Shown here: in pieces, positions 16,823 through 35,528 of the stretch | Numbering within the stretch: position 1 is the stretch's first letter | Layout: every line of letters starts with the position of its first letter | Virus record (IMG/VR): IMGVR_UViG_3300013368_000005 | Span: 64,001-128,000 of that record | Reading direction: 5' to 3' (one strand) | DNA length: 64,000 nucleotides | Source: a virus | Taxonomy: Duplodnaviria; Caudoviricetes | Program-made: the position numbers and the translations under genes | Notes under the pieces: model-generated | Databases searched by the model: none | Told to the model about the DNA's origin: nothing | What the model saw: the letters and a program-made list of their open reading frames with translations, nothing else

Positions 16823-17194
16823 TTATTGTTTATCTTCTAATTCTTTTTTCATTATATCATCTATAAGTGGTTTCTTAGCTCGATATACTTTTATCCAAAA
16901 TGCTAAATTTTTTATTTTACCTAAAACTTCAAATCCTAACATACCTCCAACAAAGCATGGAAGTATAAATAGTTTCATAGATATTTTAGAGAGTATAAAT
17001 TCACTTAACGAAAATAAAATTATAGATGATACTGTTGTCGATATCAATATTCTACTTATTTTTACCTTAGTGTCCTTTTCAGTAAAAGTGTTATAGGTGT
17101 CTTTAATTATAGCCCCCAATAAACTAAAAACAAATATAAATAAAAAATCCATTATACTTGAAATAAGTGCTACTTTGTCAATTACCATCCCCAT
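16823..17194 (-). CDS. putative holin
   Basis: 123 aa, about 3 TM helices, GG.LG motif, charged C-terminus; lies at the end of the late/tail module. Confidence 0.6.
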   Translation of the reverse strand: MGMVIDKVALISSIMDFLFIFVFSLLGAIIKDTYNTFTEKDTKVKISRILISTTVSSIILFSLSEFILSKISMKLFILPCFVGGMLGFEVLGKIKNLAFWIKVYRAKKPLIDDIMKKELEDKQ

Positions 17195-17220
17195 TTCACA
17201 TCACTCATTTCTTTACTAAA

Positions 17221-18201
17221 TTAATCTTGTTTTGGAATTTTATTTTGTAAACACCCTGAGCCTATAATCACAAATATACCTATTATTGTAGATTGTGCCA
17301 TAGCTGCAGCGTTTCTTTTCTGATTTTCTATTATATCATTACGCAAATCATCAATTTGATGCTTGTATTCATATATATAAGACAAATAAGGTTGTAATGC
17401 ATCTAATATATTAATTCTTTGAATAATAATAATCTTAAAATTATCTATTTTGTACCCTAAGCTGTTTAAATCTTTAGTTCCAAATATATCTCCTTCTTTA
17501 GTCAAATATAGAGGTACTAATAATTCATAAGAGCTTAGAGCTGTTATTCCTTCTTCTTTATAGATTTTAAGTAGTTCCTTTATATTCATAGAACTAATAC
17601 ACTTATGTGGATTATTAGATCCAATTGGCTCCCAGAATATAAACTCATTTTCAAGATTGGTATTTTTTATTGCATTTATAGCTTGTTCGGTTAAAGCTGT
17701 ATTATGGACTACACTTTTCATTTTACTCCAACTCATATATTGAGTTTCTATATCTTGGTTTGCATCAAATTGGTATCCAATAGATCTATTCCAGAGAATG
17801 TTATCCATTGAAGCAACAAAAACTTTATTTGACATAGAATCTTTATTTATATAGGTATCGGATAACATCTCATCAAATATTTTTGTTAATTCACTATCAG
17901 TACTAGGGTTACTGATATCATACTCTAGATCATTTAACTCTCCTGCATATCGATTTAACATTGTTTGCTGAATATCATTTGTTCTAATTGTTAATGAGTC
18001 TTCAGCTCTTCTTATATTTTCAAGTAGAATTGTAGAGATATAATTCTCCATATCACATTCTACAGATTCTATTATATTATTATATTTAATTTTCATTATT
18101 TCATATTCATTATATTGCTTATATCCAAATACAGTCACACATAGCAATATTGAAAGTGTTGACATAGCTAAGATTTTCGATATGACATTTTTTTTCATCA
18201 T
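17221..18201 (-). CDS. membrane protein with N- and C-terminal TM helices
   Basis: Hydrophobic helices at both ends flanking a ~270-aa domain; late motif at 18222-18233. Confidence 0.7.
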   Translation of the reverse strand: MMKKNVISKILAMSTLSILLCVTVFGYKQYNEYEIMKIKYNNIIESVECDMENYISTILLENIRRAEDSLTIRTNDIQQTMLNRYAGELNDLEYDISNPSTDSELTKIFDEMLSDTYINKDSMSNKVFVASMDNILWNRSIGYQFDANQDIETQYMSWSKMKSVVHNTALTEQAINAIKNTNLENEFIFWEPIGSNNPHKCISSMNIKELLKIYKEEGITALSSYELLVPLYLTKEGDIFGTKDLNSLGYKIDNFKIIIIQRINILDALQPYLSYIYEYKHQIDDLRNDIIENQKRNAAAMAQSTIIGIFVIIGSGCLQNKIPKQD

Positions 18202-18245
18202 AATTCGTCACCTCCTTTTATTATATTTATGTTATACAAAAAATG

Positions 18246-18271
18246 GAAGCAGGAATATATATTCCTGCTTC
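18246..18271 (-). terminator. terminator (perfect 26-bp palindrome)
   Basis: GAAGCAGGAATAT|ATATTCCTGCTTC, followed by a T-run on the minus strand. Confidence 0.8.
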
Positions 18272-18279
18272 TAATATTA

Positions 18280-19221
18280 TTAACCAAATCTATTTTCTGA
18301 ATTACATAAACATCTTCCGTTGCAATTACATGTGCCATTTCCTCTGGTGACGCATGAACATAGTTCATAAACATCACATGTACATCCAGATGTTGGGGTT
18401 CTACTCACACACATACAATCTGTATTACATGTACATGCTTCAATTGTTGTTCTACTAACACAGTTACATACATTATCTGCATTACAAGTACAATCTGGAG
18501 AAAATGTTCTATCAACACATAAACAACCATGTTGTATACATATTGTCTCTGCTGTTCTGTCAACACAGGTACAACCAGTATCCGAATTACTAGTGCATTG
18601 AGTGCCTGTTCTAGTGACACATAAGCAATTAGATGGACAATCACCGCCAGTTACTTCCCCTGAAGTTCTTGAGTTACAATCACAATTTGTTATTCCTACT
18701 CTCGATACGCATGTACATAAAATATTAGAATCACATGTGTCAACTGCTGTTCTTGATACACATGAACAAGTATTATCATTACAACTACAAGAATATCCTG
18801 TTCTAGCAACACATGAACATGAGACATTCTCAATACATTCTAATTCTGATGTTCTAGCCACACAACTACATATATTACTTGAACAAATATCGCCTGATGT
18901 TCTTGCAACACAATTACAAGATGTATGAGCATCACAGGAGAGTTCTGAAGTTCTAGTAACGCAATTACATGTAGTATCTACATGTGAATCACATGTTAAT
19001 GGCATTATATTATCCATAATATCCTCTATATCACCTATAGAGACAGTATTATCTTTTAATGCAAAATTATCTATATGAGCTATACAAGTTCCAAGGTTTC
19101 TTTGATTATTCATATCATCTAATAAATCTTTTAATTGACCTAATGAATTATATTGAGGAGGATTTGTATAACCCTTTTTTATTTGTAATAAGTTTTTTAA
19201 TCTTATTAAACTCTTATTCAT
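18280..19221 (-). CDS. Cys-rich CxCVxRT-repeat protein, putative radical SAM modification substrate
   Basis: 47 Cys counted; 12 CxCVxR units plus 2 variants after a ~75-aa Cys-poor N-domain; RBS AGGAGG; near two rSAM genes. Confidence 0.8.
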   Translation of the reverse strand: MNKSLIRLKNLLQIKKGYTNPPQYNSLGQLKDLLDDMNNQRNLGTCIAHIDNFALKDNTVSIGDIEDIMDNIMPLTCDSHVDTTCNCVTRTSELSCDAHTSCNCVARTSGDICSSNICSCVARTSELECIENVSCSCVARTGYSCSCNDNTCSCVSRTAVDTCDSNILCTCVSRVGITNCDCNSRTSGEVTGGDCPSNCLCVTRTGTQCTSNSDTGCTCVDRTAETICIQHGCLCVDRTFSPDCTCNADNVCNCVSRTTIEACTCNTDCMCVSRTPTSGCTCDVYELCSCVTRGNGTCNCNGRCLCNSENRFG

Positions 19222-19237
19222 AATTTATCCTCCTATA

Positions 19238-20011
19238 TTATTTATATAAAATAGTCCATCTAAAGCCACCAACAAAACTTCCTGAATTACCTACAAATAT
19301 ATTTGTAGCATCAGCTCTAATCCATGTTTCGCCTAAATATCCTTGAGGATTTTCAATAGGCATAATCATTATATTTGTTGGTGTAAATGATAATCCATGG
19401 GCTATAGTAACTTCATTATTACTTCCAGCAAAATTTGCTATACCACTTTTATCTGTTATTTTTTGACTTAATTTTTCTGCTATTGAAGTAGCAAAATTAG
19501 GATCTTCTCCTAATGCTTTAGCTAATTCAGATAATGTATTTAATGTCTCAGGCGAAGAATCAATTAAATTAGTAATTGCTGTTTCTACCCCTTCAGTTAT
19601 TTTAGCATCTGTTTCCGTTTTATTATAGTAATCAACTAAAACGTTTGCTATTATCTCTTCTACTGTTAATTGAGGTTTGTTTAGATTAGGTACACCTTTA
19701 AATGCAATAAAATTAAATACTGTATCTATACCTGTAGTCCCCCAATCATTTCCTAAAGACATTATAGCTGTACCTTCTGGATTTATTGTGTATGACGTTT
19801 CAGGAATATATTTACCAGCAATAAATACAAATAATAAATCATAATTAATATTAAAATTTTCTATACCAATATTTACACTAGGTGCAGTTCCTGTAATAGT
19901 AATATTATTTTTTCTATATCCTATAATACCAGTAGCAGCAGCTTTTTCAAATTGCATAAATAAATCATTGCTTATTTCGTGACCTGTTACTTTTCCTCCT
20001 ATACTAGCCAT
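19238..20011 (-). CDS. tail fibre protein
   Basis: Classic fibre motif LIDSSPETLNTLSELAKALGEDPNFAT; C-terminal TIAHGLSFTP beta domain; late motif at 20038-20049. Confidence 0.85.
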   Translation of the reverse strand: MASIGGKVTGHEISNDLFMQFEKAAATGIIGYRKNNITITGTAPSVNIGIENFNINYDLLFVFIAGKYIPETSYTINPEGTAIMSLGNDWGTTGIDTVFNFIAFKGVPNLNKPQLTVEEIIANVLVDYYNKTETDAKITEGVETAITNLIDSSPETLNTLSELAKALGEDPNFATSIAEKLSQKITDKSGIANFAGSNNEVTIAHGLSFTPTNIMIMPIENPQGYLGETWIRADATNIFVGNSGSFVGGFRWTILYK

Positions 20012-20053
20012 ATTATTTCACTCCTTCATTTATATATTATTATAATGTTAAAA

Positions 20054-20077
20054 TTGGGTAGGATTAATCCTACCCAA
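20054..20077 (-). terminator. terminator (perfect 24-bp palindrome)
   Basis: TTGGGTAGGATT|AATCCTACCCAA after the rSAM pair. Confidence 0.75.
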
Positions 20078-20096
20078 CTATACTTATTATATAATA

Positions 20097-21005
20097 TCAT
20101 ATTTGTAATAGTTGTTGATAATAATCATATACTTTTTTTCTCATATTATATACTATGATATTACTCTCTTCTAATGTATGTTGTGTTTTGATAATTTTAT
20201 AATTTAAGTCTTTAGATGATGTATAATCATTACTATTTCTACCATAAGTTTCGCCTATAACTTTACCAGATGAATCTTTAACATATGTTCTGATATCATT
20301 TTTAGGAGGTGGCACTAGAAAATCTGATATTTGTATACCTTCAAGTTTATTTGATATAATATCATGAGCTAAATCATGCATTTCAGACAGATATCTATTT
20401 AAATAATTTTCATCTACAGACATTGTAGATTCTATAATACCTATATTCATTCTACACCTTATGCCTTTTTCATGTAGTTCATGAATACTTTCTCTTAAAA
20501 AAGCTATATTATACGGATGAGTAACAATATGCATATTGTAATTAATACCATTTCTATTTAACTTATCTATATTTTCTATTACTTTATCAAATGTATTCTC
20601 ATGTGTATCCTTAAATACTCTAAGCTGATTGGCAATTTTATTACCGTCTAAACTTATAGAAAATACTATATTTTTATTCTCTTTAAGAAATTTAATGTGT
20701 TCATCTTCTAATATAGTGCCATTAGTTGTAATATATATTGTATTTACTATATTATTAAATGAAGTGTTTCTTTCGGTAAGTTCTATCCATTCATATGCAC
20801 TTTTAATATTATCAAAAGCTAACATTGGTTCTCCACCTAGAAATTCTATATTAAATCTTTTATTATGACCAGCGAAATTGTATATATTATTTATTAAGTC
20901 TTCGATTTCTTCTTTACAATATATAGATTCTTTATCTTTTTCGTAACAATATTTACAATTACAATTACATTCCTTGGTTACATGAATGACATAAGTTTCT
21001 ATCAT
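20097..21005 (-). CDS. radical SAM protein lacking a SPASM domain
   Basis: CNCNCKYC (CxxxCxxC), GGEP, TTNGT, SISLDG; no C-terminal Cys cluster. Confidence 0.9.
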   Translation of the reverse strand: MIETYVIHVTKECNCNCKYCYEKDKESIYCKEEIEDLINNIYNFAGHNKRFNIEFLGGEPMLAFDNIKSAYEWIELTERNTSFNNIVNTIYITTNGTILEDEHIKFLKENKNIVFSISLDGNKIANQLRVFKDTHENTFDKVIENIDKLNRNGINYNMHIVTHPYNIAFLRESIHELHEKGIRCRMNIGIIESTMSVDENYLNRYLSEMHDLAHDIISNKLEGIQISDFLVPPPKNDIRTYVKDSSGKVIGETYGRNSNDYTSSKDLNYKIIKTQHTLEESNIIVYNMRKKVYDYYQQLLQI

Positions 21006-21018
21006 AATTATTCACCAC

Positions 21019-22557
21019 CTAGAGATTTTTTATTATTTGCGTAAGAGCTTCAGGTATCAATTCTGTTACACTAGTATACATATCTTCAATTTTATTATTT
21101 AAGAATTGCTTTTCTAAAATTAATCCAGTATATTCTTCGATAGTTAAACCTTCTTCTTCAGCACGTTCTAATATTTTATTATAAGTAGATTTAGCTAATT
21201 TTATTGTAACAATATTATCTGATTTAATCTCAACTTTATTAGCTGATATCATATCTGCTTTGAGTGTAAACTTATTATTAGTCTCTTCGCTATCTATTAA
21301 ATTAAATTGTGTACCTCTTGAATCACATAAACATGCTGGGTTGTCTGGATTATTTCCTATGGTTGAACTTATTTTATTATCTTTTCTATCTAATACTCCC
21401 AATTTATAATACTCCTCTACTTCTTTTTTTATATATGATTGTATTTCTTTTTCTATTTTACTCATTTGACATCTATACCCTCTAGATACAGATAATATAG
21501 AACCATTTTCACAAAGATTTTCTGCTATACATCTATAACAATGATAGCAGTCACAATCTGGATCATCTATTTTACAACTTAAATCATTATTATCATACTC
21601 TACGAATAATAATCTTTTTTGATCGTCTATACCATCAAATATATTACCTATTATATATTGTCTTTCTGGATCATTAAAATATATATGATGACAAGGTGAA
21701 ATATCTCCATTGGCAGTAATAGTAATAAAACTATTACCAGCTCCACAAGGTTTATTCGAAAAATCACAAGCATTAGATAAACTTCTGTCTAATGGTGCAT
21801 AATTTCTTATTTCATTTAAATTACCTTCCTTTTCTACTCTATTTAATATATAGTCTGCTATTTTGCCTAATTGTTCTTTATACATATTAACATCTTTTTG
21901 AGTCCAATCATTACTATGAATAGGCATAAACCATATATGTTTTAAACCCCAATCTTCTCTAAAGAATTTATAACTTTCAAATAAATATTTCATAGAAAAA
22001 TCATTTAAACATCCATGTATGCTTAAATTATCAGGTTTATTTTTGAAAAGATTTTTCCATTTAGGGATATTCTTTTCTACTATTTGAAAACTACCTTTTT
22101 TATTATGTGTTATTCTAAAAGCATCTTGAACTTTTTGAATACCATCTACAGATAATTGAACAGTAAGATTAACGTTATATATTCCTTTACTAAGTATTCT
22201 TTCTAATTCTGTTGTCAGTATGGTACCATTTGTTATCATATTCATAGACACGGGTATCTTTGTTATACTACTTATAGCACTAGCTTCATCGATTATAAAT
22301 TCCAATATCTCTGGCTCTAATGTTGGCTCTCCTCCAAATAATAATATATTTACCCGTTGCTCTCCAAATCCATTATCTATATTTTTTTTCGCATTGTCAA
22401 ATAAGAATTTAATACCTTGATTAGCAACTTCATAAGACATTTTATTCTTATTATGTTTTTCGAAACAATATGAGCAAGCTAGATTACAATTTTCTGTAAC
22501 TAGAAAACTTGCTGCAGTGGGTTGTAAAATCTTTTTAATGTCGATTATTTTTATCAT
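21019..22557 (-). CDS. radical SAM/SPASM peptide maturase-like enzyme with C-terminal extension
   Basis: CNLACSYC, FGGEP, TNGT, SVDG; SPASM PCGAG...GDISPCH...IGNI...CDCYHCYRC...C; late motif at 22577-22588. Confidence 0.93.
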   Translation of the reverse strand: MIKIIDIKKILQPTAASFLVTENCNLACSYCFEKHNKNKMSYEVANQGIKFLFDNAKKNIDNGFGEQRVNILLFGGEPTLEPEILEFIIDEASAISSITKIPVSMNMITNGTILTTELERILSKGIYNVNLTVQLSVDGIQKVQDAFRITHNKKGSFQIVEKNIPKWKNLFKNKPDNLSIHGCLNDFSMKYLFESYKFFREDWGLKHIWFMPIHSNDWTQKDVNMYKEQLGKIADYILNRVEKEGNLNEIRNYAPLDRSLSNACDFSNKPCGAGNSFITITANGDISPCHHIYFNDPERQYIIGNIFDGIDDQKRLLFVEYDNNDLSCKIDDPDCDCYHCYRCIAENLCENGSILSVSRGYRCQMSKIEKEIQSYIKKEVEEYYKLGVLDRKDNKISSTIGNNPDNPACLCDSRGTQFNLIDSEETNNKFTLKADMISANKVEIKSDNIVTIKLAKSTYNKILERAEEEGLTIEEYTGLILEKQFLNNKIEDMYTSVTELIPEALTQIIKNL

Positions 22558-22611
22558 AAATATCTCCTCCCTTGATTATAATAATGTTTGTCCCATGATA
22601 TAATAATAAAA

Positions 22612-22643
22612 ATTACAAGATACCAATTAAGGTATCTTGTAAT
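22612..22643 (-). terminator. intrinsic terminator
   Basis: ATTACAAGATACC-AATTAA-GGTATCTTGTAAT. Confidence 0.8.
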
Positions 22644-22645
22644 GA

Positions 22646-23494
22646 TTAGCAAGTAGCAACCCAACTTGTTCCATTATAATATTTCATAATACCATTTTTC
22701 CAACCTAAATTATAAGGTTGAGGTACATTTGATGTTACCCATGAACTCCCATTCCATACATGACAACCAGATCTATAAGTTGCATCCCAGCCTTCTTCTG
22801 CTTGTAAATCCGATTCATAACTTCCATTTAATGAAGACACTGCAAATTGAATACCATCATAAGCACCAGCAGCACTATTAACAGGAAAGTCATATCGATT
22901 ACTTACAACAGTACTTTGATAACTCCAATTGGCATTCCATGTTCCAGTAGAATGATTATAATATCTAGCATATACTTTATATCCAGTTGCTCCAGATGCT
23001 CCAGTAAAGGTAACTCTCATTTCTTCTCCTTTATTGAATAATCCTGAAACAGATACGTTTGATGGTTTGTTTGGAATTGTTTGAATTTGATCTAATGTAA
23101 CAGTTTTTCCTACACTCATCGTTCCTATCCAAACACCTGTATAAGTAATTTCTATAGCAAATGTTGCTGCTAGATCTACTGAACGAGATCCATCTGAATT
23201 ATGAGGCACTGTAGCTGTTCTAGTAACTAATACATTTTGCCAAATTTGACTATCATCATTTCTATCTGGAACAGATTTACTAAAATTTTGCGTACTTCCA
23301 TTTATTGTGGTTGTTCCATTTTTTACTAATCCCCATGTACTTACAGAACTACTTTCCATTATTACTGAAATTGTTACAGAGGATGAATTAGTAGCTTGAT
23401 TTGGAGTTGATGACCATTGAATACCTAATCTAACATTATATCTCTCTAAAGCAGAACCACCATAATACCCACTCCAAAATATTCCACTAGCCAT
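22646..23494 (-). CDS. tail-associated structural protein (DUF859-like N-domain plus FN3-like domain)
   Basis: NQATNSSSVT...TATVPHNSDGSRSV motif typical of phage minor tail proteins; PNKPSNV...GATGYKVY is FN3-like; S/T/G/W-rich. Confidence 0.7.
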   Translation of the reverse strand: MASGIFWSGYYGGSALERYNVRLGIQWSSTPNQATNSSSVTISVIMESSSVSTWGLVKNGTTTINGSTQNFSKSVPDRNDDSQIWQNVLVTRTATVPHNSDGSRSVDLAATFAIEITYTGVWIGTMSVGKTVTLDQIQTIPNKPSNVSVSGLFNKGEEMRVTFTGASGATGYKVYARYYNHSTGTWNANWSYQSTVVSNRYDFPVNSAAGAYDGIQFAVSSLNGSYESDLQAEEGWDATYRSGCHVWNGSSWVTSNVPQPYNLGWKNGIMKYYNGTSWVATC

Positions 23495-23509
23495 AGATAT
23501 ACACCTCCT

Positions 23510-25090
23510 TTATATCCAACTTATCCACACATCTCCAGTTTTAGGGCTAGATGGTGCAGTTTTTTGTATCTTTATTTTACTATCTAATGTAGTTATTGTA
23601 TTATTTATAGTATTTACTTTACCATCCATTTCAGTTTTAGTATAATAACCACCAAATTTGTTATTTATAGTGGTTATCTTACCATCTATTTCACCTTTGG
23701 TATAATAATTACTTAGACTATTGGATAAGCTAGATATACTATTATTTATAGTATTTATCTTACTGTCTATATTCGCTTTATTATAATAATTATTAGCAAG
23801 ATTATCAGATAAGCTATCTATACTATTATTTATAGTATTTACTATATTATCTATCTCTAATTTAGTATAATAATCATTAAATTTTTCTATAGCACCAGTT
23901 ATCATATCTTGTATTTCTTTAGATAATGCTTCCCATGGTATAGAGCCAGGATCTATTATAGAGCCATCCACTCCTACTTCTGATATAGGAACGTTAACTA
24001 ATCCTATAATATTAAATACTGTTGGGTTTTCTGGTGTTCCTTCCCATATTTCTGTTTCAGGACATAATATATTAATACCATCTTCTGTAATTGTATAATC
24101 TTCATTTTCTGCTAAAAATACACTATTTTTGAATACTAGTAAAAAGTCAACACCCTTTCTAAATTTAATTCCTATTTCAATATAGTTTACATTTTGTGTT
24201 ATAGCTACAGTATTTTTTCTTGCTACAAATCCTCCATTAATTCCATCTTCTCCAGTAGCTATTACAATCCATCCTGTTCCATCAAACTGCTTTATAGCCT
24301 TAGCAGAAGTATCAAACCAGATGTCTCCTCTTATTCTATCATATGGTTCACTAACACTAACAATATATCTATATCCATTTACCATATCAGCATCTATTAC
24401 GCTATCATCTGATATAATTTGTGCATAATTAAATATATATGTTAATCTTTCATCTTGATTAATTACAGGATATGATTGAGAAAAAATAAGATTATAGTCC
24501 TCTGCAATAACATAATCTTCTGTTTTTACAAGTTCATCATTTCGTAATACAACCATTGGAAATTTAGTAAAATCATAACCAACAAAAGGCACAGGTATTC
24601 TAAATATTCTCTGAGCTGTTCTTTCAACAAAATAATGTTCCATTTGAGTTTTTAACTCAAATCTTTTTCCTTCTTTAATCATATCGTCTAAAACACTTGA
24701 TAATGGGGTACCATCATCATTAAATACTTGGCTTGTTAATGTTCTGGGAGCAGTAGCTATACCATTTTCCTCTATTGTCGCTGGAACTAGTTCTCTTAAT
24801 ATCGCACCACCTAATATAACATCATCTGTTATTCTCATCCAAGAATATTTAAATTTATAAGTCATATTTGTTTCTTTTACAAGATATATCATAGATAAGT
24901 CTGGTGTTTCAATTTGTTCTCTTTCATATTCAGTTGCTAATATGATAATATTTTCAACTAGAACTCTTTCAGCATTGTTATTATCTACGAATATTTCATT
25001 TGTGTCTGTACATTCAATAATCTGACCTGTAATTATAGGTATTTTTACTAATCCAGGTTTTAATGCAGATATATATTTTATTATAGTCAT
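23510..25090 (-). CDS. tail fibre protein
   Basis: YY[TN]Kx[EN]ID repeats x4, GDIWFDT and APSSPKTGDVWI motifs; domains shared with 19238..20011 and 27208..28413; late motif at 25120-25131. Confidence 0.8.
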   Translation of the reverse strand: MTIIKYISALKPGLVKIPIITGQIIECTDTNEIFVDNNNAERVLVENIIILATEYEREQIETPDLSMIYLVKETNMTYKFKYSWMRITDDVILGGAILRELVPATIEENGIATAPRTLTSQVFNDDGTPLSSVLDDMIKEGKRFELKTQMEHYFVERTAQRIFRIPVPFVGYDFTKFPMVVLRNDELVKTEDYVIAEDYNLIFSQSYPVINQDERLTYIFNYAQIISDDSVIDADMVNGYRYIVSVSEPYDRIRGDIWFDTSAKAIKQFDGTGWIVIATGEDGINGGFVARKNTVAITQNVNYIEIGIKFRKGVDFLLVFKNSVFLAENEDYTITEDGINILCPETEIWEGTPENPTVFNIIGLVNVPISEVGVDGSIIDPGSIPWEALSKEIQDMITGAIEKFNDYYTKLEIDNIVNTINNSIDSLSDNLANNYYNKANIDSKINTINNSISSLSNSLSNYYTKGEIDGKITTINNKFGGYYTKTEMDGKVNTINNTITTLDSKIKIQKTAPSSPKTGDVWISWI

Positions 25091-25142
25091 AATAACTCCT
25101 CCTTATTTAGTTTACTTATTATTATTATGTTTGCTGAAGACA

Positions 25143-25176
25143 AATAGAGTGTATATAATATTATATACACTCTATT
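25143..25176 (-). terminator. terminator (perfect 34-bp palindrome)
   Basis: AATAGAGTGTATATAAT|ATTATATACACTCTATT directly after the CXXX gene. Confidence 0.7.
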
Positions 25177-25178
25177 AT

Positions 25179-25895
25179 TTATCTTATAGAATTTAATAGT
25201 TTTATCAAAAATGTCATATCTGTCCGTTTAACTATTTCTGATGTACTCTTCTTTGTAGGTAAAGTTCCTCTTATAAATTGAGTTAATGGTATCATTGCAT
25301 CTATAAATTCATTATAATAATTTATATGCCAGATACAGGTGGAATCTATACCTACAAAAGAAAATGCTGTTAAATACTTATATATCCTAAATTCATTTAT
25401 TTTTTGTCTAAGTGAGATTACATCGTTTATAGTAATGTGTGTTTGTTCACCTATCTTCTTTTCTTGCCATGTAAAATTAGCTGGTCTAGGTTTTTGATCC
25501 TGTTGAATATTACACTGACATGCTATTTGACACATATCTTGACAATAGCTTTGACAAGTAGTTAAACATGCTTTTTCACATGTAAATTGACATAACATTT
25601 GACAATTTTCTTGGCAATTTAATTCACAACCAGTTTGACAAGCCGTTTGACAAACAGTTTGGCAAGTTTGACATCCTTGTCGTTCACATTGGCATACTGA
25701 CAAACATGTTGCTAAGCATGCTTCATTTACTAATTGACAAGCATTTTCACATTGATTGCATTCTGCCTCTATGTCCATACACATACATGTATTCATACAA
25801 GCATCTGAACAACTGCTATTTGCTAAAGTTACGTTATTAGAATCATTCAAGAAGTCAGGAATAGTTATTTCAGTACCTTTTAAAAAATCGCTCAT
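25179..25895 (-). CDS. CXXX-repeat protein fused to a tail-protein-like C-terminal domain; putative rSAM substrate
   Basis: 26 Cys in ~100 aa, including 12 consecutive Cxxx units; start refined to MSDFLK (AGGAGG RBS within the 3' end of the rSAM gene). Confidence 0.82.
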   Translation of the reverse strand: MSDFLKGTEITIPDFLNDSNNVTLANSSCSDACMNTCMCMDIEAECNQCENACQLVNEACLATCLSVCQCERQGCQTCQTVCQTACQTGCELNCQENCQMLCQFTCEKACLTTCQSYCQDMCQIACQCNIQQDQKPRPANFTWQEKKIGEQTHITINDVISLRQKINEFRIYKYLTAFSFVGIDSTCIWHINYYNEFIDAMIPLTQFIRGTLPTKKSTSEIVKRTDMTFLIKLLNSIR

Positions 25896-25900
25896 TTCGA

Positions 25901-27145
25901 TCACCTCCTGTTAAATTGAGTTTTAAATAATTCATTTGACTCACCTGCTAACGTATTCATTATATTTATCGATGTATCTAAGCATATATTATAAAATTTA
26001 CATAATATTTCTGGAACTATTGTTAAATCGCCACAGGAAAAATAATTGTTTATAGAGCAATACCCATCACATATATTATGGAGTCTGCATGTCTTACACC
26101 TTTTTGAATCAGAACACCTGACTTTTTTTACATCAAACGAGTTTATAATTTCCCATCTTTTATCATTATAGATTTCAGTGAATAAATTACCTATTATAAA
26201 TTTATCTCCATTTTCTCTGTTTCCTACCATTTCTTGGCAAGAATATATTTCTCCATCGGGACCTATTGATGCAAATCTATTAGAACCTAATCCGCATCTA
26301 CCATATGCAGGTGCATCTGTAGCATTTCTAAACGATGCAGTTTCATTAAATCTATTAATCTTTTTTATATTACCAAATGCATAATCAAATTGCGAAATAG
26401 ATATATCTCTACCTTCTCTTATTAATTCTATATACCAATTAGCAACTTCATTGATCGCTATTACTAGATCATTAACCTCTTGATTAGTCCATTTAGTAAA
26501 TACATTAACAATAAAAAATATATTATTATATCCTTTTTCTATAGCAAATTTACAATTATGCAATAATTGTTTACAATTATCATGATCTAATGTCATTCTA
26601 AAAGTCATATTAGGATTTAATTTTAGAGCTTTAGGGATATTATTTATTATTAAATCAAATGATGATTTTCCATTATGAAGAGGTCTATTTAAATCTTGTG
26701 TAGGTTTATCTCCATCAATACTGATCATAATTCCAATATTATTATCTTTTATAAATTGTAATCTTTCCTCATTCAATAATGTACCATTGGTCGTCATAGA
26801 TAATTGAAAATTATTATTACATTGCTTTCTAATATATTTAGTCAATGGTACAATTATTTCATCCCATTTGAGCATGGGTTCTCCACCAAAGAAATTGATA
26901 CTAGGAATGTCCCCTTGTATTTTAGAATTTTCTATAATAAAATCTACAGCTCTTTTTGCAGTATCATAAGACATTTCTTTAGCATATTGATCTATAAAAC
27001 AATACTTACATTTAAGATTACATTTTTGTGTAACATTGAGAAATATGGAAGTTATTAATGGTAAGTCTCCATCTTTCCATATTTGCTCTACTGTTCTAAA
27101 ATTATTATTTTCGCATTGTTGATTTACACATTGTTCACAATTCAT
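25901..27145 (-). CDS. radical SAM/SPASM peptide maturase-like enzyme
   Basis: CNLKCKYC, FFGGEP, TTNGT, SIDG; SPASM RCGLG...GEIYSCQ...CKTC...CDGYC...C; start refined to MNCEQC (AAGGTGG RBS). Confidence 0.93.
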   Translation of the reverse strand: MNCEQCVNQQCENNNFRTVEQIWKDGDLPLITSIFLNVTQKCNLKCKYCFIDQYAKEMSYDTAKRAVDFIIENSKIQGDIPSINFFGGEPMLKWDEIIVPLTKYIRKQCNNNFQLSMTTNGTLLNEERLQFIKDNNIGIMISIDGDKPTQDLNRPLHNGKSSFDLIINNIPKALKLNPNMTFRMTLDHDNCKQLLHNCKFAIEKGYNNIFFIVNVFTKWTNQEVNDLVIAINEVANWYIELIREGRDISISQFDYAFGNIKKINRFNETASFRNATDAPAYGRCGLGSNRFASIGPDGEIYSCQEMVGNRENGDKFIIGNLFTEIYNDKRWEIINSFDVKKVRCSDSKRCKTCRLHNICDGYCSINNYFSCGDLTIVPEILCKFYNICLDTSINIMNTLAGESNELFKTQFNRR

Positions 27146-27207
27146 ATTAATTACCACCTTTAAAAAATAATTAAAAAACCCATTACGAGTTTTTTAATTA
27201 TTATATT

Positions 27208-28413
27208 TTATGAGAAATAAGCACCACCAAGTGTAATCCATCCAGAAGTTGTTTTTAATTTTATTACTTTATTTATACTATCTATCCATAACTCATTTTC
27301 TAAAGCATTAACAGGTTCCATAGTCTGAATGTAATATGTCGGTTTCTTAGATAGCATGGCATCAACTTCAGATTTTGTATATACCATATTAGTATCTACC
27401 TTAGAAGCTATCTGTTGGATTATAGTGCTTGACATATTGGGATTACTTGCCAACATATTAGAAAGTTGGGTCAAAGTAGCTAAATCTGTTGGGGAAGCAT
27501 TGATTATACTTTGAATTAAATCTTGAGTTTCTTGTTTTGTATAAGTATTATATCCATCAGCCTTTGATGTAAAGTAAGTTATTTGATCTTCGGTAACAAA
27601 TTTGTTATACATATCTTGAACTATACTCTCTGCTCTGATAGCTATATCATCAGCAAGTTTTATTGATGTTATAGATTTATCTGCATAATTTTTGGTTGTA
27701 AGAACTGTATTGGCGTTTAAATCATAAAATCTAGTATAAAAAAATATAAATAATGCAAACTCTCCTTGATTTAGGGCATCATTTGGGTTTTTAATTACTA
27801 AATCATCGCCTTTTACTTCATACTTTCCACTAAAATTATAGCCTCTAACAATTACAGCCATCTTATCTTGAGCCAAATCATAATTAGCTATCGGATATGG
27901 TATTTTTATTATCATCTGTTTATCTCTAGTAGCATGTACATAAATAGATTTACTAGCTGTAACTGCTATTTTATCAATAGCCTCTAAGGATTCTGCTAAT
28001 GTACTTCCATCTTCCATAATTACAACACTTGATAATGTTGTAGGAGCGATACTCTGCTCCATTGCAGCATAAAGTCCTTTTGTAGAATAAGTACTTTGTA
28101 AGAACTCATCTGAAGAGAATGCTGTTGTTAAGAAATCTTGTTGATCTTGTATAGTAAGCCATATTAAACCATCGTGCTTGTATACATTACCAGTTTCTTT
28201 AACATAATAAACTTTAGTCATTGACGTATATTGTAATAGGTCTTTATCAGCTTCGGTTGATAGATATATTATTTCATTTAATATTATACGTTGTTCATCT
28301 GATAGATCAAAAAAAGATTCTTTTGTATCAGTGCAATATATTATTTGATTTGTAAATAATCGAGTATTTCCTAACATATCTCGTATTATTTCTTTATAAC
28401 TAACAAATGACAT
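27208..28413 (-). CDS. tail fibre protein
   Basis: IINASPTDLATLTQLSNML (fibre motif variant), YTKSEVD, ENELWIDS; N-terminus paralogous to 23510..25090; late motif at 28439-28450. Confidence 0.8.
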   Translation of the reverse strand: MSFVSYKEIIRDMLGNTRLFTNQIIYCTDTKESFFDLSDEQRIILNEIIYLSTEADKDLLQYTSMTKVYYVKETGNVYKHDGLIWLTIQDQQDFLTTAFSSDEFLQSTYSTKGLYAAMEQSIAPTTLSSVVIMEDGSTLAESLEAIDKIAVTASKSIYVHATRDKQMIIKIPYPIANYDLAQDKMAVIVRGYNFSGKYEVKGDDLVIKNPNDALNQGEFALFIFFYTRFYDLNANTVLTTKNYADKSITSIKLADDIAIRAESIVQDMYNKFVTEDQITYFTSKADGYNTYTKQETQDLIQSIINASPTDLATLTQLSNMLASNPNMSSTIIQQIASKVDTNMVYTKSEVDAMLSKKPTYYIQTMEPVNALENELWIDSINKVIKLKTTSGWITLGGAYFS

Positions 28414-28473
28414 ATTAAATCCTCCTTTATAAATTAATTAATATTATGTTATCTTTATGGATAGATACAAAGA

Positions 28474-28505
28474 ATAACACTTCTTGAATTAACAAGAAGT
28501 GTTAT
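28474..28505 (-). terminator. intrinsic terminator
   Basis: ATAACACTTCTTG-AATTAA-CAAGAAGTGTTAT. Confidence 0.8.
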
Positions 28506-34664: not shown

Positions 34665-35528
34665 TTATTTTCTTTTTAATAACAATTCTTTAGAGACGAA
34701 GCCACTACTCTTTCCATGTCCACCGCCACCGAACTTCTCAGCTATTTTGCCACAGTTAATATCATCTTTAACAGTGAAAATAGAATACATATAAGCTTCT
34801 CCTGTAAATACATAACTACATACAAGATCATAATCGTTTATTTTATCTCCAAAAATAGCTGAATATGCTCTCCTATTTACAACTAAACACTTATGACCTT
34901 CTAATAAAGATTCATAAGCATATTTATTTAGATATTCTTTAAACTCTTGTTTATTATATTCATTAATCACTTTACCTTTTTCAATAAGCTCATTAATAAG
35001 TTTATTTTTATCATCATCTTCATTTAATTTTTCCCATATAGGATCTAGCGGACCATAGTTTGTTGCATTTAATCCTAATATAAAATATTCAGAGTCTTTA
35101 CCTAATTCAAATTTAAAACAATCAAAATCACTTACATATTGTATAAACAAAGGACAATCTTTTATGCTGTATAGATCTTCAAAATACATACAAGCTAGAC
35201 CCATACCAGATATACCCTCTAGTCTTAAACCTGCTATTTCTTCTTCTATCTCAGGATATTTCTCTATTAGTTTCATAGAAGATTGATGATGATCAATCCA
35301 AACTATATTTTTTGTAATTTTTCTCAACTCTTGTAGCACATTATAGGAAGATTCCTTAAAAGAATAATCTACTATATATACTTTTTCATTTTTAGAGATT
35401 TTATCTAATGGAAATGGCTTTAGATAATCTAATTCTATATAATCAGATTCTTTGGTATTTCCAGTGTGTTTTGATACTACATATGCAGCACCTCTTCCGT
35501 CTGCATCATCATGGTGTATAATTTTCAT
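34665..35528 (-). CDS. DHH-DHHA1 family phosphoesterase
   Basis: HHDDADG, IVDYS, WIDHH, GGGGH motifs. Confidence 0.9.
   Translation of the reverse strand: MKIIHHDDADGRGAAYVVSKHTGNTKESDYIELDYLKPFPLDKISKNEKVYIVDYSFKESSYNVLQELRKITKNIVWIDHHQSSMKLIEKYPEIEEEIAGLRLEGISGMGLACMYFEDLYSIKDCPLFIQYVSDFDCFKFELGKDSEYFILGLNATNYGPLDPIWEKLNEDDDKNKLINELIEKGKVINEYNKQEFKEYLNKYAYESLLEGHKCLVVNRRAYSAIFGDKINDYDLVCSYVFTGEAYMYSIFTVKDDINCGKIAEKFGGGGHGKSSGFVSKELLLKRK

Follow-up and report, generated by a model that had tools for sequence, protein, structure and literature searches.

Background

Why should a phage keep radical SAM enzymes, relatives of those that mature peptides, in the middle of its tail-fibre genes? 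The question is raised by a stretch of viral DNA, bases 64001-128000 of the 186,590-bp IMG/VR virus record IMGVR_UViG_3300013368_000005 (guanine-plus-cytosine content about 25%). We call this stretch of 64,000 nucleotides the window, and positions below are counted from its first base. On its minus strand lies a late-gene block holding the tail-fibre genes. Within this block, between positions 18280 and 28413, fibre genes are interspersed with genes for radical SAM enzymes and for proteins with dense cysteine repeats. The whole record holds three radical SAM genes, all of them in this region. A first-pass annotation, made from the sequence alone, had described the region as part of the tail-fibre module of a jumbo phage. 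The phage is a large one, but the word 'jumbo' is not borne out, because the record has the length given above at a completeness that CheckV estimates at 75%. Megablast against 50,697 GenBank phages returned no relatives of the region at the DNA level.

In our opinion, two modification cassettes, independent of each other, lie in the region, and late-type promoters drive each of them together with tail-fibre genes; we give this reading a probability of roughly 0.55. Cassette 1 would consist of the fibre gene fib401, the enzyme rSAM418 and a protein in which every fourth residue is a cysteine and which also has a C-terminal domain. Cassette 2 would consist of a fibre with a tip domain (fib257), the enzyme rSAM512, which lacks a recognition element (RRE) for precursors of peptides that are made on ribosomes and modified after translation (RiPPs), the SPASM-less enzyme rSAM302 and a Cys-repeat protein of 313 residues. 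The enzymes would act on the neighbouring Cys-repeat proteins and form intramolecular thioether bridges from Cys to carbon, in the manner of ranthipeptide maturases and of QhpD. A bridge might, for example, run from the second Cys of a repeat unit to a Thr four residues on, which is the CX3-acceptor spacing of the PapB motif CX3D. The product would stay uncleaved and be mounted on the tail fibre, or form its distal part, and the result would be a covalently stapled extracellular structure in hosts with a cytoplasm unable to make disulfides.

Genes and transcription units

The genes, their family likeness and their linkage to one another and to tail genes are matters of direct observation. All nine open reading frames listed by the first-pass annotation exist, on the minus strand, and its layout of four operon-like units is real. 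Unit A opens with a promoter-like late-type motif, AACATAATATTA (28439-28450), 37 nt 5' of the fib401 start codon, with a hairpin upstream of it at 28474-28505. Its first gene, fib401 (27208-28413), encodes a tail-fibre-type protein (phrog_23820, tail fibre, E 9.2e-15) and is followed by rSAM418 (25901-27145; Radical_SAM, E 1.5e-18), the PapB/CteB-like radical SAM/SPASM enzyme of system 1. The CxxxC-repeat protein of that system, Crep241/238 (25179-25895), comes next, its start coupled to the rSAM418 stop. A hairpin (25143-25176) closes the unit, and the next promoter motif follows at 25120-25131. Unit B consists of fib526 (23510-25090), a fibre paralogue, and the tail protein tail282 (22646-23494; phrog_372, E 6.1e-18), with a terminator at 22612-22643.

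Unit C begins with the promoter-like motif AACATTATTATA (22577-22588) and carries the two enzymes of system 2: rSAM512 (21019-22557), a radical SAM/SPASM protein, and rSAM302 (20097-21005; Radical_SAM, E 5.2e-16), followed by a hairpin at about 20053-20078. Unit D has the motif AACATTATAATA (20038-20049), then fib257 (19238-20011), a short fibre protein whose last 70 or so residues (about 185-257) are the conserved tip domain of the system 2 cassette, then the CxCxxRT-repeat protein Crep313 (18280-19221) and a terminator hairpin (18246-18271). A membrane-protein and holin-like unit comes after it. A hairpin stands at the end of every unit in the region.

The annotation had also seen a shared late motif, AACA-N6-TA, in front of the units. 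It holds up by position: the motif starts 26-43 nt 5' of the first ATG in 9 of the 17 genes that lie on the minus strand from 16.8 to 35.5 kb (binomial P 1.6e-13), the nine being those that follow a real intergenic gap, and the neighbouring virion genes are preceded by the same motif as the cassette units. Counted across the window, on the contrary, it is not enriched (76 found, 93 expected).

As to the fibre and tail labels, fib257, fib401 and tail282 do match PHROG tail families, but the 'DUF859/FN3' name proposed for 22646-23494 finds no Pfam match at E 10. The best match of fib257 to the tail and tail-fibre families has an E value of 5.6e-18, with phrog_1197 and others falling on residues 124-196. 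The proteins fib401 and fib526 are paralogous over their N-terminal 230 or so residues (E 6e-20), and a central motif is common to fib257 and fib401. In L036, a close relative of this phage, fib401 has a homologue at the same position (37% identity) and fib526 has one as well (41%). The three fibre proteins contain between none and two cysteines, and the tip domain of fib257 has none.

A conserved four-gene cassette

We compared the open reading frames of every recovered locus with the proteins of the window. System 2, made up of rSAM512, rSAM302, fib257 and the CxCxxRT protein, recurs in 15 further phage or prophage loci (L005, L006, L007, L009, L010, L013, L020, L021, L022, L023, L024, L025, L029, L030 and L046). 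The order that recurs begins with the tip-domain protein; an rSAM512 orthologue (41-55% identity) comes next, then the Cys-repeat protein and last an rSAM302 orthologue (41-52%). An rSAM512 orthologue adjoins a member of the Crep313 family in all 15 loci. The tip domain of about 70 residues, corresponding to the C-terminus of fib257 (41-59% identity), lies directly upstream of the enzyme in 14, and an rSAM302 orthologue is present in 11, the contig ending first in three more. The locus without a tip domain, L030, has at that place a minor tail protein of 1200 residues (phrog_6211, E 1.6e-193). The first-pass proposal had been made to depend on whether homologous enzymes keep company with Cys-repeat or tail genes; they do, in these 15 loci for rSAM512 and rSAM302 and in all four contexts read for rSAM418 (below). 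The same annotation had counted two enzyme-substrate pairs. The enzymes are indeed beside Cys-repeat genes, but system 2 is a four-gene cassette, with two enzymes, a tip-domain fibre and a putative substrate, rather than a pair.

The proteins that bear the tip have between about 107 and 1063 residues, and their N-terminal parts are mutually unrelated, as those of modular fibres would be. One of them has PF12571, the N-terminal domain of tail-collar fibres (E 3.7e-62), another matches the tail-fibre family phrog_7389 (E 9e-24). PHROG homology and position in a tail module together identify fib257 and its tip-domain relatives as tail-fibre proteins. Atlas leads for the tip domain itself, H_lectin and Gp53-like_C, scored below 0.9 and are leads only.

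The tip domain invites a different explanation of the cassette, namely that the cross-links are intermolecular and couple cysteines of the repeat protein to the tip or to another fibre chain, which would fasten it covalently to the fibre. The tip is Cys-free in fib257, is conserved at least as well as the enzymes (41-59% against 41-55%) and is always found immediately ahead of the enzyme gene. The tip domain is missing altogether, however, from system 1 and from the bacterial CXXX proteins, and we know of no SPASM maturase that makes intermolecular links. In our opinion such coupling is quite improbable, and intramolecular bridges within the repeat protein remain the reading that we prefer.

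In five loci (L009, L010, L021, L022 and L023) the cassette follows tail and baseplate genes including Baseplate_J. The prophages L009 and L010 have a PBSX-like order of tail-assembly chaperone, tape measure, LysM, YqbQ, sheath initiator, Baseplate_J and Mu_Gp48 genes, and sheath and tube genes are also called in L010. The cassette stands there directly after Mu_Gp48 and right before the holin and amidase genes, which is the tail-fibre slot, and the gene calls of both loci include no other fibre gene. In myoviruses of the P2, Mu and PBSX type, pairs of a tail-fibre gene with a fibre-assembly or distal-fibre gene have the matching position, after the Baseplate_J and Mu_Gp48 homologues and before lysis, and likewise combine a proximal protein with exchangeable N-terminal modules and a conserved tip. 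We know of no fibre or Tfa-type chaperone that is rich in Cys repeats or accompanied by radical SAM enzymes.

The named hosts of Crep313-family loci are a Thermoanaerobacterales and a Clostridia metagenome-assembled genome, and the family is rare (found in 1 genome out of 40 sampled and in 2 out of 399). L006, a close relative of the window phage, has a cassette with two Cys-repeat genes. In L036, which carries system 1, tail282 leads straight to the membrane and holin unit, and system 2 is absent. L029 (6710-13906) is a viral contig readable only with TGA as Trp (code 4); under that code it encodes a tip-domain fibre of 1063 residues, a radical SAM enzyme of 498, a protein of 494 residues with 81 cysteines, and a second radical SAM enzyme of 307.

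Different sets were seen elsewhere. L035 (5342-11566) has a PBSX-like tail module, then a protein of 318 residues and a distant radical SAM enzyme of 461 residues flanked by open reading frames of 82 and 1106 residues. These two share the N-terminus MKRMSDI[KE]K, a different enzyme and repeat set at the fibre position. Three radical SAM genes in a row, only distantly related to the window enzymes, are found in viral contigs of 280 kb (L032, 9923-15033) and 61 kb (L034, 9947-15048).

The CXXX module of system 1

The enzyme of system 1 is no orthologue of the rSAM512-group enzymes (24-31% identity). Its relatives are far more numerous: more than 1000 reach E<=1e-30, and more than 100 have an identity of 43-59%. 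In four of the four contexts that we read, the gene next after the rSAM418 orthologue (43-59% identity) carries a CxxxC array, in the style CQTxCQ or CQCSxEGCQTCQ. Two of these contexts are phage tail regions. L036, syntenic with the window phage from p392 to the holin, has a 558-residue protein sharing the C-terminal domain of the 238-residue protein of the window; L037, a region with Mtd_N and an S8/beta-helix spike, has a 197-residue protein that ends in GGxWK repeats resembling those in tail proteins. The other two are clostridial genomes. In Clostridium tepidiprofundi DSM 19306 (L038, 9112-14078) a sigma-70 region 4 regulator comes first, then a BhlA holin, the rSAM418 orthologue (51%) and a protein of 929 residues with 113 cysteines that is PG-binding/SleB-like, a layout that we liken, on general grounds, to holin-exported clostridial toxin or bacteriocin loci. 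Clostridiaceae bacterium M8S5 (CP118523; L039, 8698-19690) has two rSAM418-type enzymes and an RHS/YD-shell protein of 2759 residues with an N-terminal CxxxC array. In phage tail regions as in two clostridial genomes, then, large structural or extracellular proteins carry the CXXX array as a module.

Virion part or late product?

These clostridial loci bear directly on the question of where the products go. It could be argued that the enzymes modify the Cys-repeat proteins but that the products are not parts of the virion. They would then be soluble late products freed at lysis, for instance large proteins that resemble bacteriocins or block receptors, or factors directed at competitors or at the host envelope, and the fibre neighbourhood would simply be a site of late accessory cargo. 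The cassette does directly abut lysis-type genes, in the window as in the prophages; the C. tepidiprofundi pair stands behind a regulator and a holin; and the array of L039 heads an RHS protein of the polymorphic-toxin type. On the other hand, system 2 has as its strictly conserved partner a fibre-tip domain, borne by proteins whose N-terminal modules are of tail-fibre type, the PBSX-like prophages offer no other candidate for a distal fibre among their gene calls, and neither an immunity gene nor an exporter or a protease is present in the record. We therefore regard a released product as unlikely, though less so than the intermolecular coupling discussed above.

In our opinion, association of the Cys-repeat proteins with fibres is probable, because the fibre-tip partner is obligatory, the prophages place the cassette in the fibre slot, and the genes are co-transcribed with fibre genes.

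The first-pass statement that no transporter or leader peptidase accompanies the genes agrees with our scans of the 186.6-kb record (about 75% complete), which found no C39 peptidase, no ABC transporter (ABC_tran) above cut-off and no PqqD/RRE. The usual features of a RiPP locus are a short precursor, a cleaved leader and a protease or exporter. The putative substrates here have 238 and 313 residues, and no such genes are found in the part of the genome covered by the record.

The enzymes

All three proteins are radical SAM enzymes by the PF04055 cut-off of 29.5 bits, with scores of 67.9 (rSAM418), 45.2 (rSAM512) and 59.7 bits (rSAM302). The CX3CX2C motif is invariant across the rSAM512 orthologues, as C24, C28 and C31; in rSAM302 it consists of C13, C17 and C20. 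The PapB family NF047865 is the top-scoring named family for each of them, followed by the SCIFF, CXXX, QhpD and CcpM maturases. Scores against the PapB model (330 positions; cut-off 340 bits) are 227.8 bits over 2-328 for rSAM418, 202 bits over 4-315 for rSAM512 and 93.9 bits over 6-215 for rSAM302. The closest solved structure for all three is CteB (5WGG), with E values of 1.9e-30, 1.3e-38 and 4.2e-19 in the same order. The alignment of rSAM418 covers CteB residues 95-437 and matches the SPASM cysteines, though PF13186 gives no match. For rSAM512, PF13186 scores 21.5 bits, exactly at the cut-off, and seven later cysteines are invariant in its orthologues. Only six cysteines are present in rSAM302, and its alignment, CteB residues 97-325, ends before the SPASM domain. 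Coverage of the PapB model and the CteB alignments are in accord with the first-pass view of two SPASM enzymes and one without that domain.

No RRE for leader recognition is seen: the enzymes begin 11-35 residues before the radical SAM core, and the CteB alignments start at residue 95-98, so that the N-terminal RRE of CteB has no counterpart. After its SPASM domain, rSAM512 has a tail (about residues 395-512; 21019-21400, minus strand) with a motif resembling a substrate unit, NNPDNPACLCDSR, and then a helical C-terminal end. The consensus GNNP[ND]NPxCLCD[SCVL]R, followed by an amphipathic helix, is present in 9 of the 12 rSAM512-type enzymes compared. The tail motif may be a pseudo-substrate, or a self-modified tail.

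How do these enzymes and their presumed substrates compare with known systems? In the PapB/PapA (freyrasin) system, as here, the substrate is a repeated Cys motif at a fixed spacing to a later residue. The C-x-x-R-T unit has the same Cys-to-acceptor spacing as CX3D. PapB natively acts on the motif CSAND, in which the acceptor stands on the C-terminal side of the Cys, and it recognizes its leader through an RRE (PMC12373016). The enzymes of both systems described here have none. The side-chain acceptors reported for PapB are acidic, whereas the conserved residue here is Thr, or Gln/Thr in the CXXX arrays; and PapB substrates are short peptides, in contrast to proteins of 238-313 residues, and up to 2759 elsewhere, in a tail-gene context.

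The CXXX-repeat systems resemble system 1 in that a radical SAM/SPASM enzyme stands beside a target in which every fourth residue is a Cys. The TIGR04115 maturase model gives 118-128 bits here (cut-off 350). TIGR04119, CXXX_matur, gives partial matches of 74 bits to rSAM512 and 61 bits to its L005 orthologue (cut-off 150), and it is the less CXXX_matur-like enzyme that is paired here with the CXXX-type substrate.

CteB, the clostridial SPASM enzyme of the SCIFF (thermocellin) system CteB/CteA and the nearest solved relative, forms a Cys-to-Thr thioether. The SCIFF model TIGR03974 scores 152.6 and 111.6 bits here against a cut-off of 425, and SCIFF precursors have about 45 residues with six cysteines, while the substrates proposed here are much longer. 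A precedent for a protein staple is provided by QhpD, a SPASM enzyme that makes several Cys thioethers in a protein that is kept as a structural subunit. Its model TIGR03906 (QhpD/QhpC) is among the top families for rSAM418 and rSAM512 (139 and 116 bits; cut-off 453), but QhpD works on a periplasmic enzyme subunit, not on a repeat array and not in a virus.

The cysteine-repeat proteins

The Cys-repeat proteins claimed by the first-pass annotation are real, with 47 cysteines in the 313 residues of Crep313 and 27 in the 238 residues of Crep241/238. Crep313 has a Cys-poor N-terminal part of 84 residues and then 14 CxC[VN]xR units, ending in the conserved sequence CNCNGRCLCNSENRFG. Crep241/238 has an N-terminus of about 28 residues, about 100 residues with 26 cysteines, among them 13 successive Cys-to-Cys spacings of four residues, and a Cys-poor C-terminal domain of about 105 residues. 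By eye, neither N-terminus looks like a signal peptide.

A word-based protein search found one relative of Crep313, P0001, whose gene adjoins four radical SAM genes (BLASTP E 5e-17, with N-terminus and repeats aligned), and no relatives of Crep241/238. An exhaustive profile search extended the Crep313 family to 67 cluster representatives, nearly all of which align from residue 1; for 36 the match is at E<=1e-10. The common parts are an N-terminal domain of about 100 residues, arrays of C-x-C-x-x-R-T and the C-terminal end C-x-C-N-x-R-C-x-C-N-x-x-x-x-F. Arg is fixed in all of the 580 units that we counted, and Thr follows it in 59%. The C-terminal domain of Crep241/238 recurs, as said, in the CXXX protein of L036, and its end matches phrog_37329 (E 3.2e-5); tblastn found no match to this domain in phages. 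Pattern scans of IMG/VR built on a single protein or on two sequences returned no match, the NCBIfam CXXX target models match neither Cys-repeat protein at E<=5 (the composition filter of HMMER may hide weak matches of such proteins), and PF27846 for the CXXX protein is only a lead, with an Atlas score below 0.9.

An AlphaFold2 model of Crep313 from a 40-sequence alignment has three helices and a strand in residues 1-85, with a predicted local distance difference test (pLDDT) of 72-93, and a last strand at 308-312 with a pLDDT of 85. A model of Crep241/238 from its single sequence reached a pLDDT of 46 and was not used. Prediction of a complex between the tip domain and the Crep313 N-terminal domain scored 0.00, which weighs neither for nor against binding.

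Some minor observations on this family may be added. P0005 is the only member with a Cys-free domain inserted in its array (residues 243-382); the insert was considered as a candidate tail282/DUF859-like domain, but its end resembles tail282 weakly (BLASTP E 0.004 over 40 residues), and it has no PHROG or Pfam match. At 18405-18928, open reading frames of 79 and 108 residues on both strands overlap the Crep313 gene; they are by-products of the repeats and have no support of their own.

Weighing the chemistry and the reading

Since the enzymes resemble thioether maturases, are strictly linked to dense Cys arrays and come without genes for export or cleavage, we hold it very likely, on such comparisons, that the Cys-repeat proteins are their substrates. 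Thioether stapling would be the most likely chemistry, and by analogy probably the right one, because the C-x-x-R-T spacing equals that of CSAND in PapB and CteB links Cys to Thr.

Several points weigh against the reading that we propose. All three enzymes score below every curated cut-off for a named maturase family, and therefore the chemistry could differ. The thioether scheme leaves unexplained the reaction of the conserved SPASM-less rSAM302. The repeat array of the Crep313 model has a pLDDT of about 40, and fold searches with the model gave no usable match (Z at most 4.5 in the PDB, E at least 0.9 in BFVD, TM at most 0.27 in the Atlas), which does not imply a novel fold. By tblastn there is no rSAM512 orthologue in GenBank phages, and no cultured phage is a carrier; for rSAM418 the same search gave matches only at 30% identity or less. 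The CXXX array also occurs on RHS and wall-binding proteins and is therefore a general module, not specific to fibres. Finally, we infer virion incorporation from gene position and domain sharing, and the thioether chemistry and the proposed roles are our inferences as well.

The first two of these points could be taken to mean that the chemistry is not Cys-to-carbon thioether formation at all. The arrays might then be binding sites for metals or Fe-S clusters, or have disulfides that form extracellularly, and the enzymes would do other work, such as epimerisation, C-C or C-O cross-linking, or modification of the invariant Arg or of Thr. Related families do include cyclophane-forming and other non-thioether maturases, and it is Arg that anchors every unit counted, Thr being next to it in a little over half. 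Nevertheless, the nearest named families and the nearest structure, PapB, SCIFF/CteB, QhpD and CcpM, are all Cys-thioether enzymes, and dense, regular cysteine is the sole feature common to both substrate types. We therefore consider a different chemistry improbable, somewhat more so than a product released at lysis, and keep thioether stapling as the preferred scheme.

A wider version of the hypothesis can be offered only tentatively. Phages and tail-like prophages of strict anaerobes might build the host-contacting end of the fibre from a long Cys-repeat protein, into which dedicated radical SAM enzymes would put many thioether bridges while it is still in the cell, and the same stapled module might serve generally in clostridia as an extracellular scaffold, at the head of RHS toxins and in wall-bound proteins, as a substitute for disulfides.

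Implications of the hypothesis

In the literature that we found there is no description of radical SAM maturases in tail-fibre modules. The paper on Campylobacter phage CP220 reports many phage radical SAM genes and treats them as metabolic (PMC2853527). If the hypothesis is correct, RiPP-type radical chemistry builds virus particles and not just small secreted peptides. It would represent a new class of post-translational modification of virions, and a virion protein would for the first time be seen to have radical cross-links put in by enzymes. Rigidity like that of disulfides, with resistance to proteases or reduction, would become available in anaerobes. It would also add a new class of substrate, C-x-C-x-x-R-T arrays with a folded N-terminal domain, and RRE-less maturases that have a substrate-like tail and are paired with a SPASM-less enzyme. 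Variable arrays on a conserved tip domain resemble a host-range module, which is relevant to fibre engineering and enzyme discovery.

Neighbouring genes

Downstream of the terminator of unit D, 16823-18201 (minus strand) forms a unit of its own, with a promoter motif at 18222 and terminators. It encodes a protein of 326 residues with hydrophobic ends and a protein of 123 residues with multiple hydrophobic segments. Neither has a PHROG match, and the unit is kept in L006 and L036 (34% and 67-71% identity); its function is probably that of a lysis or holin unit. A homologue of DHH phosphoesterases (phrog_4771, E 4e-40) is encoded at 34665-35528 (minus strand), where the virion block has its upstream edge.

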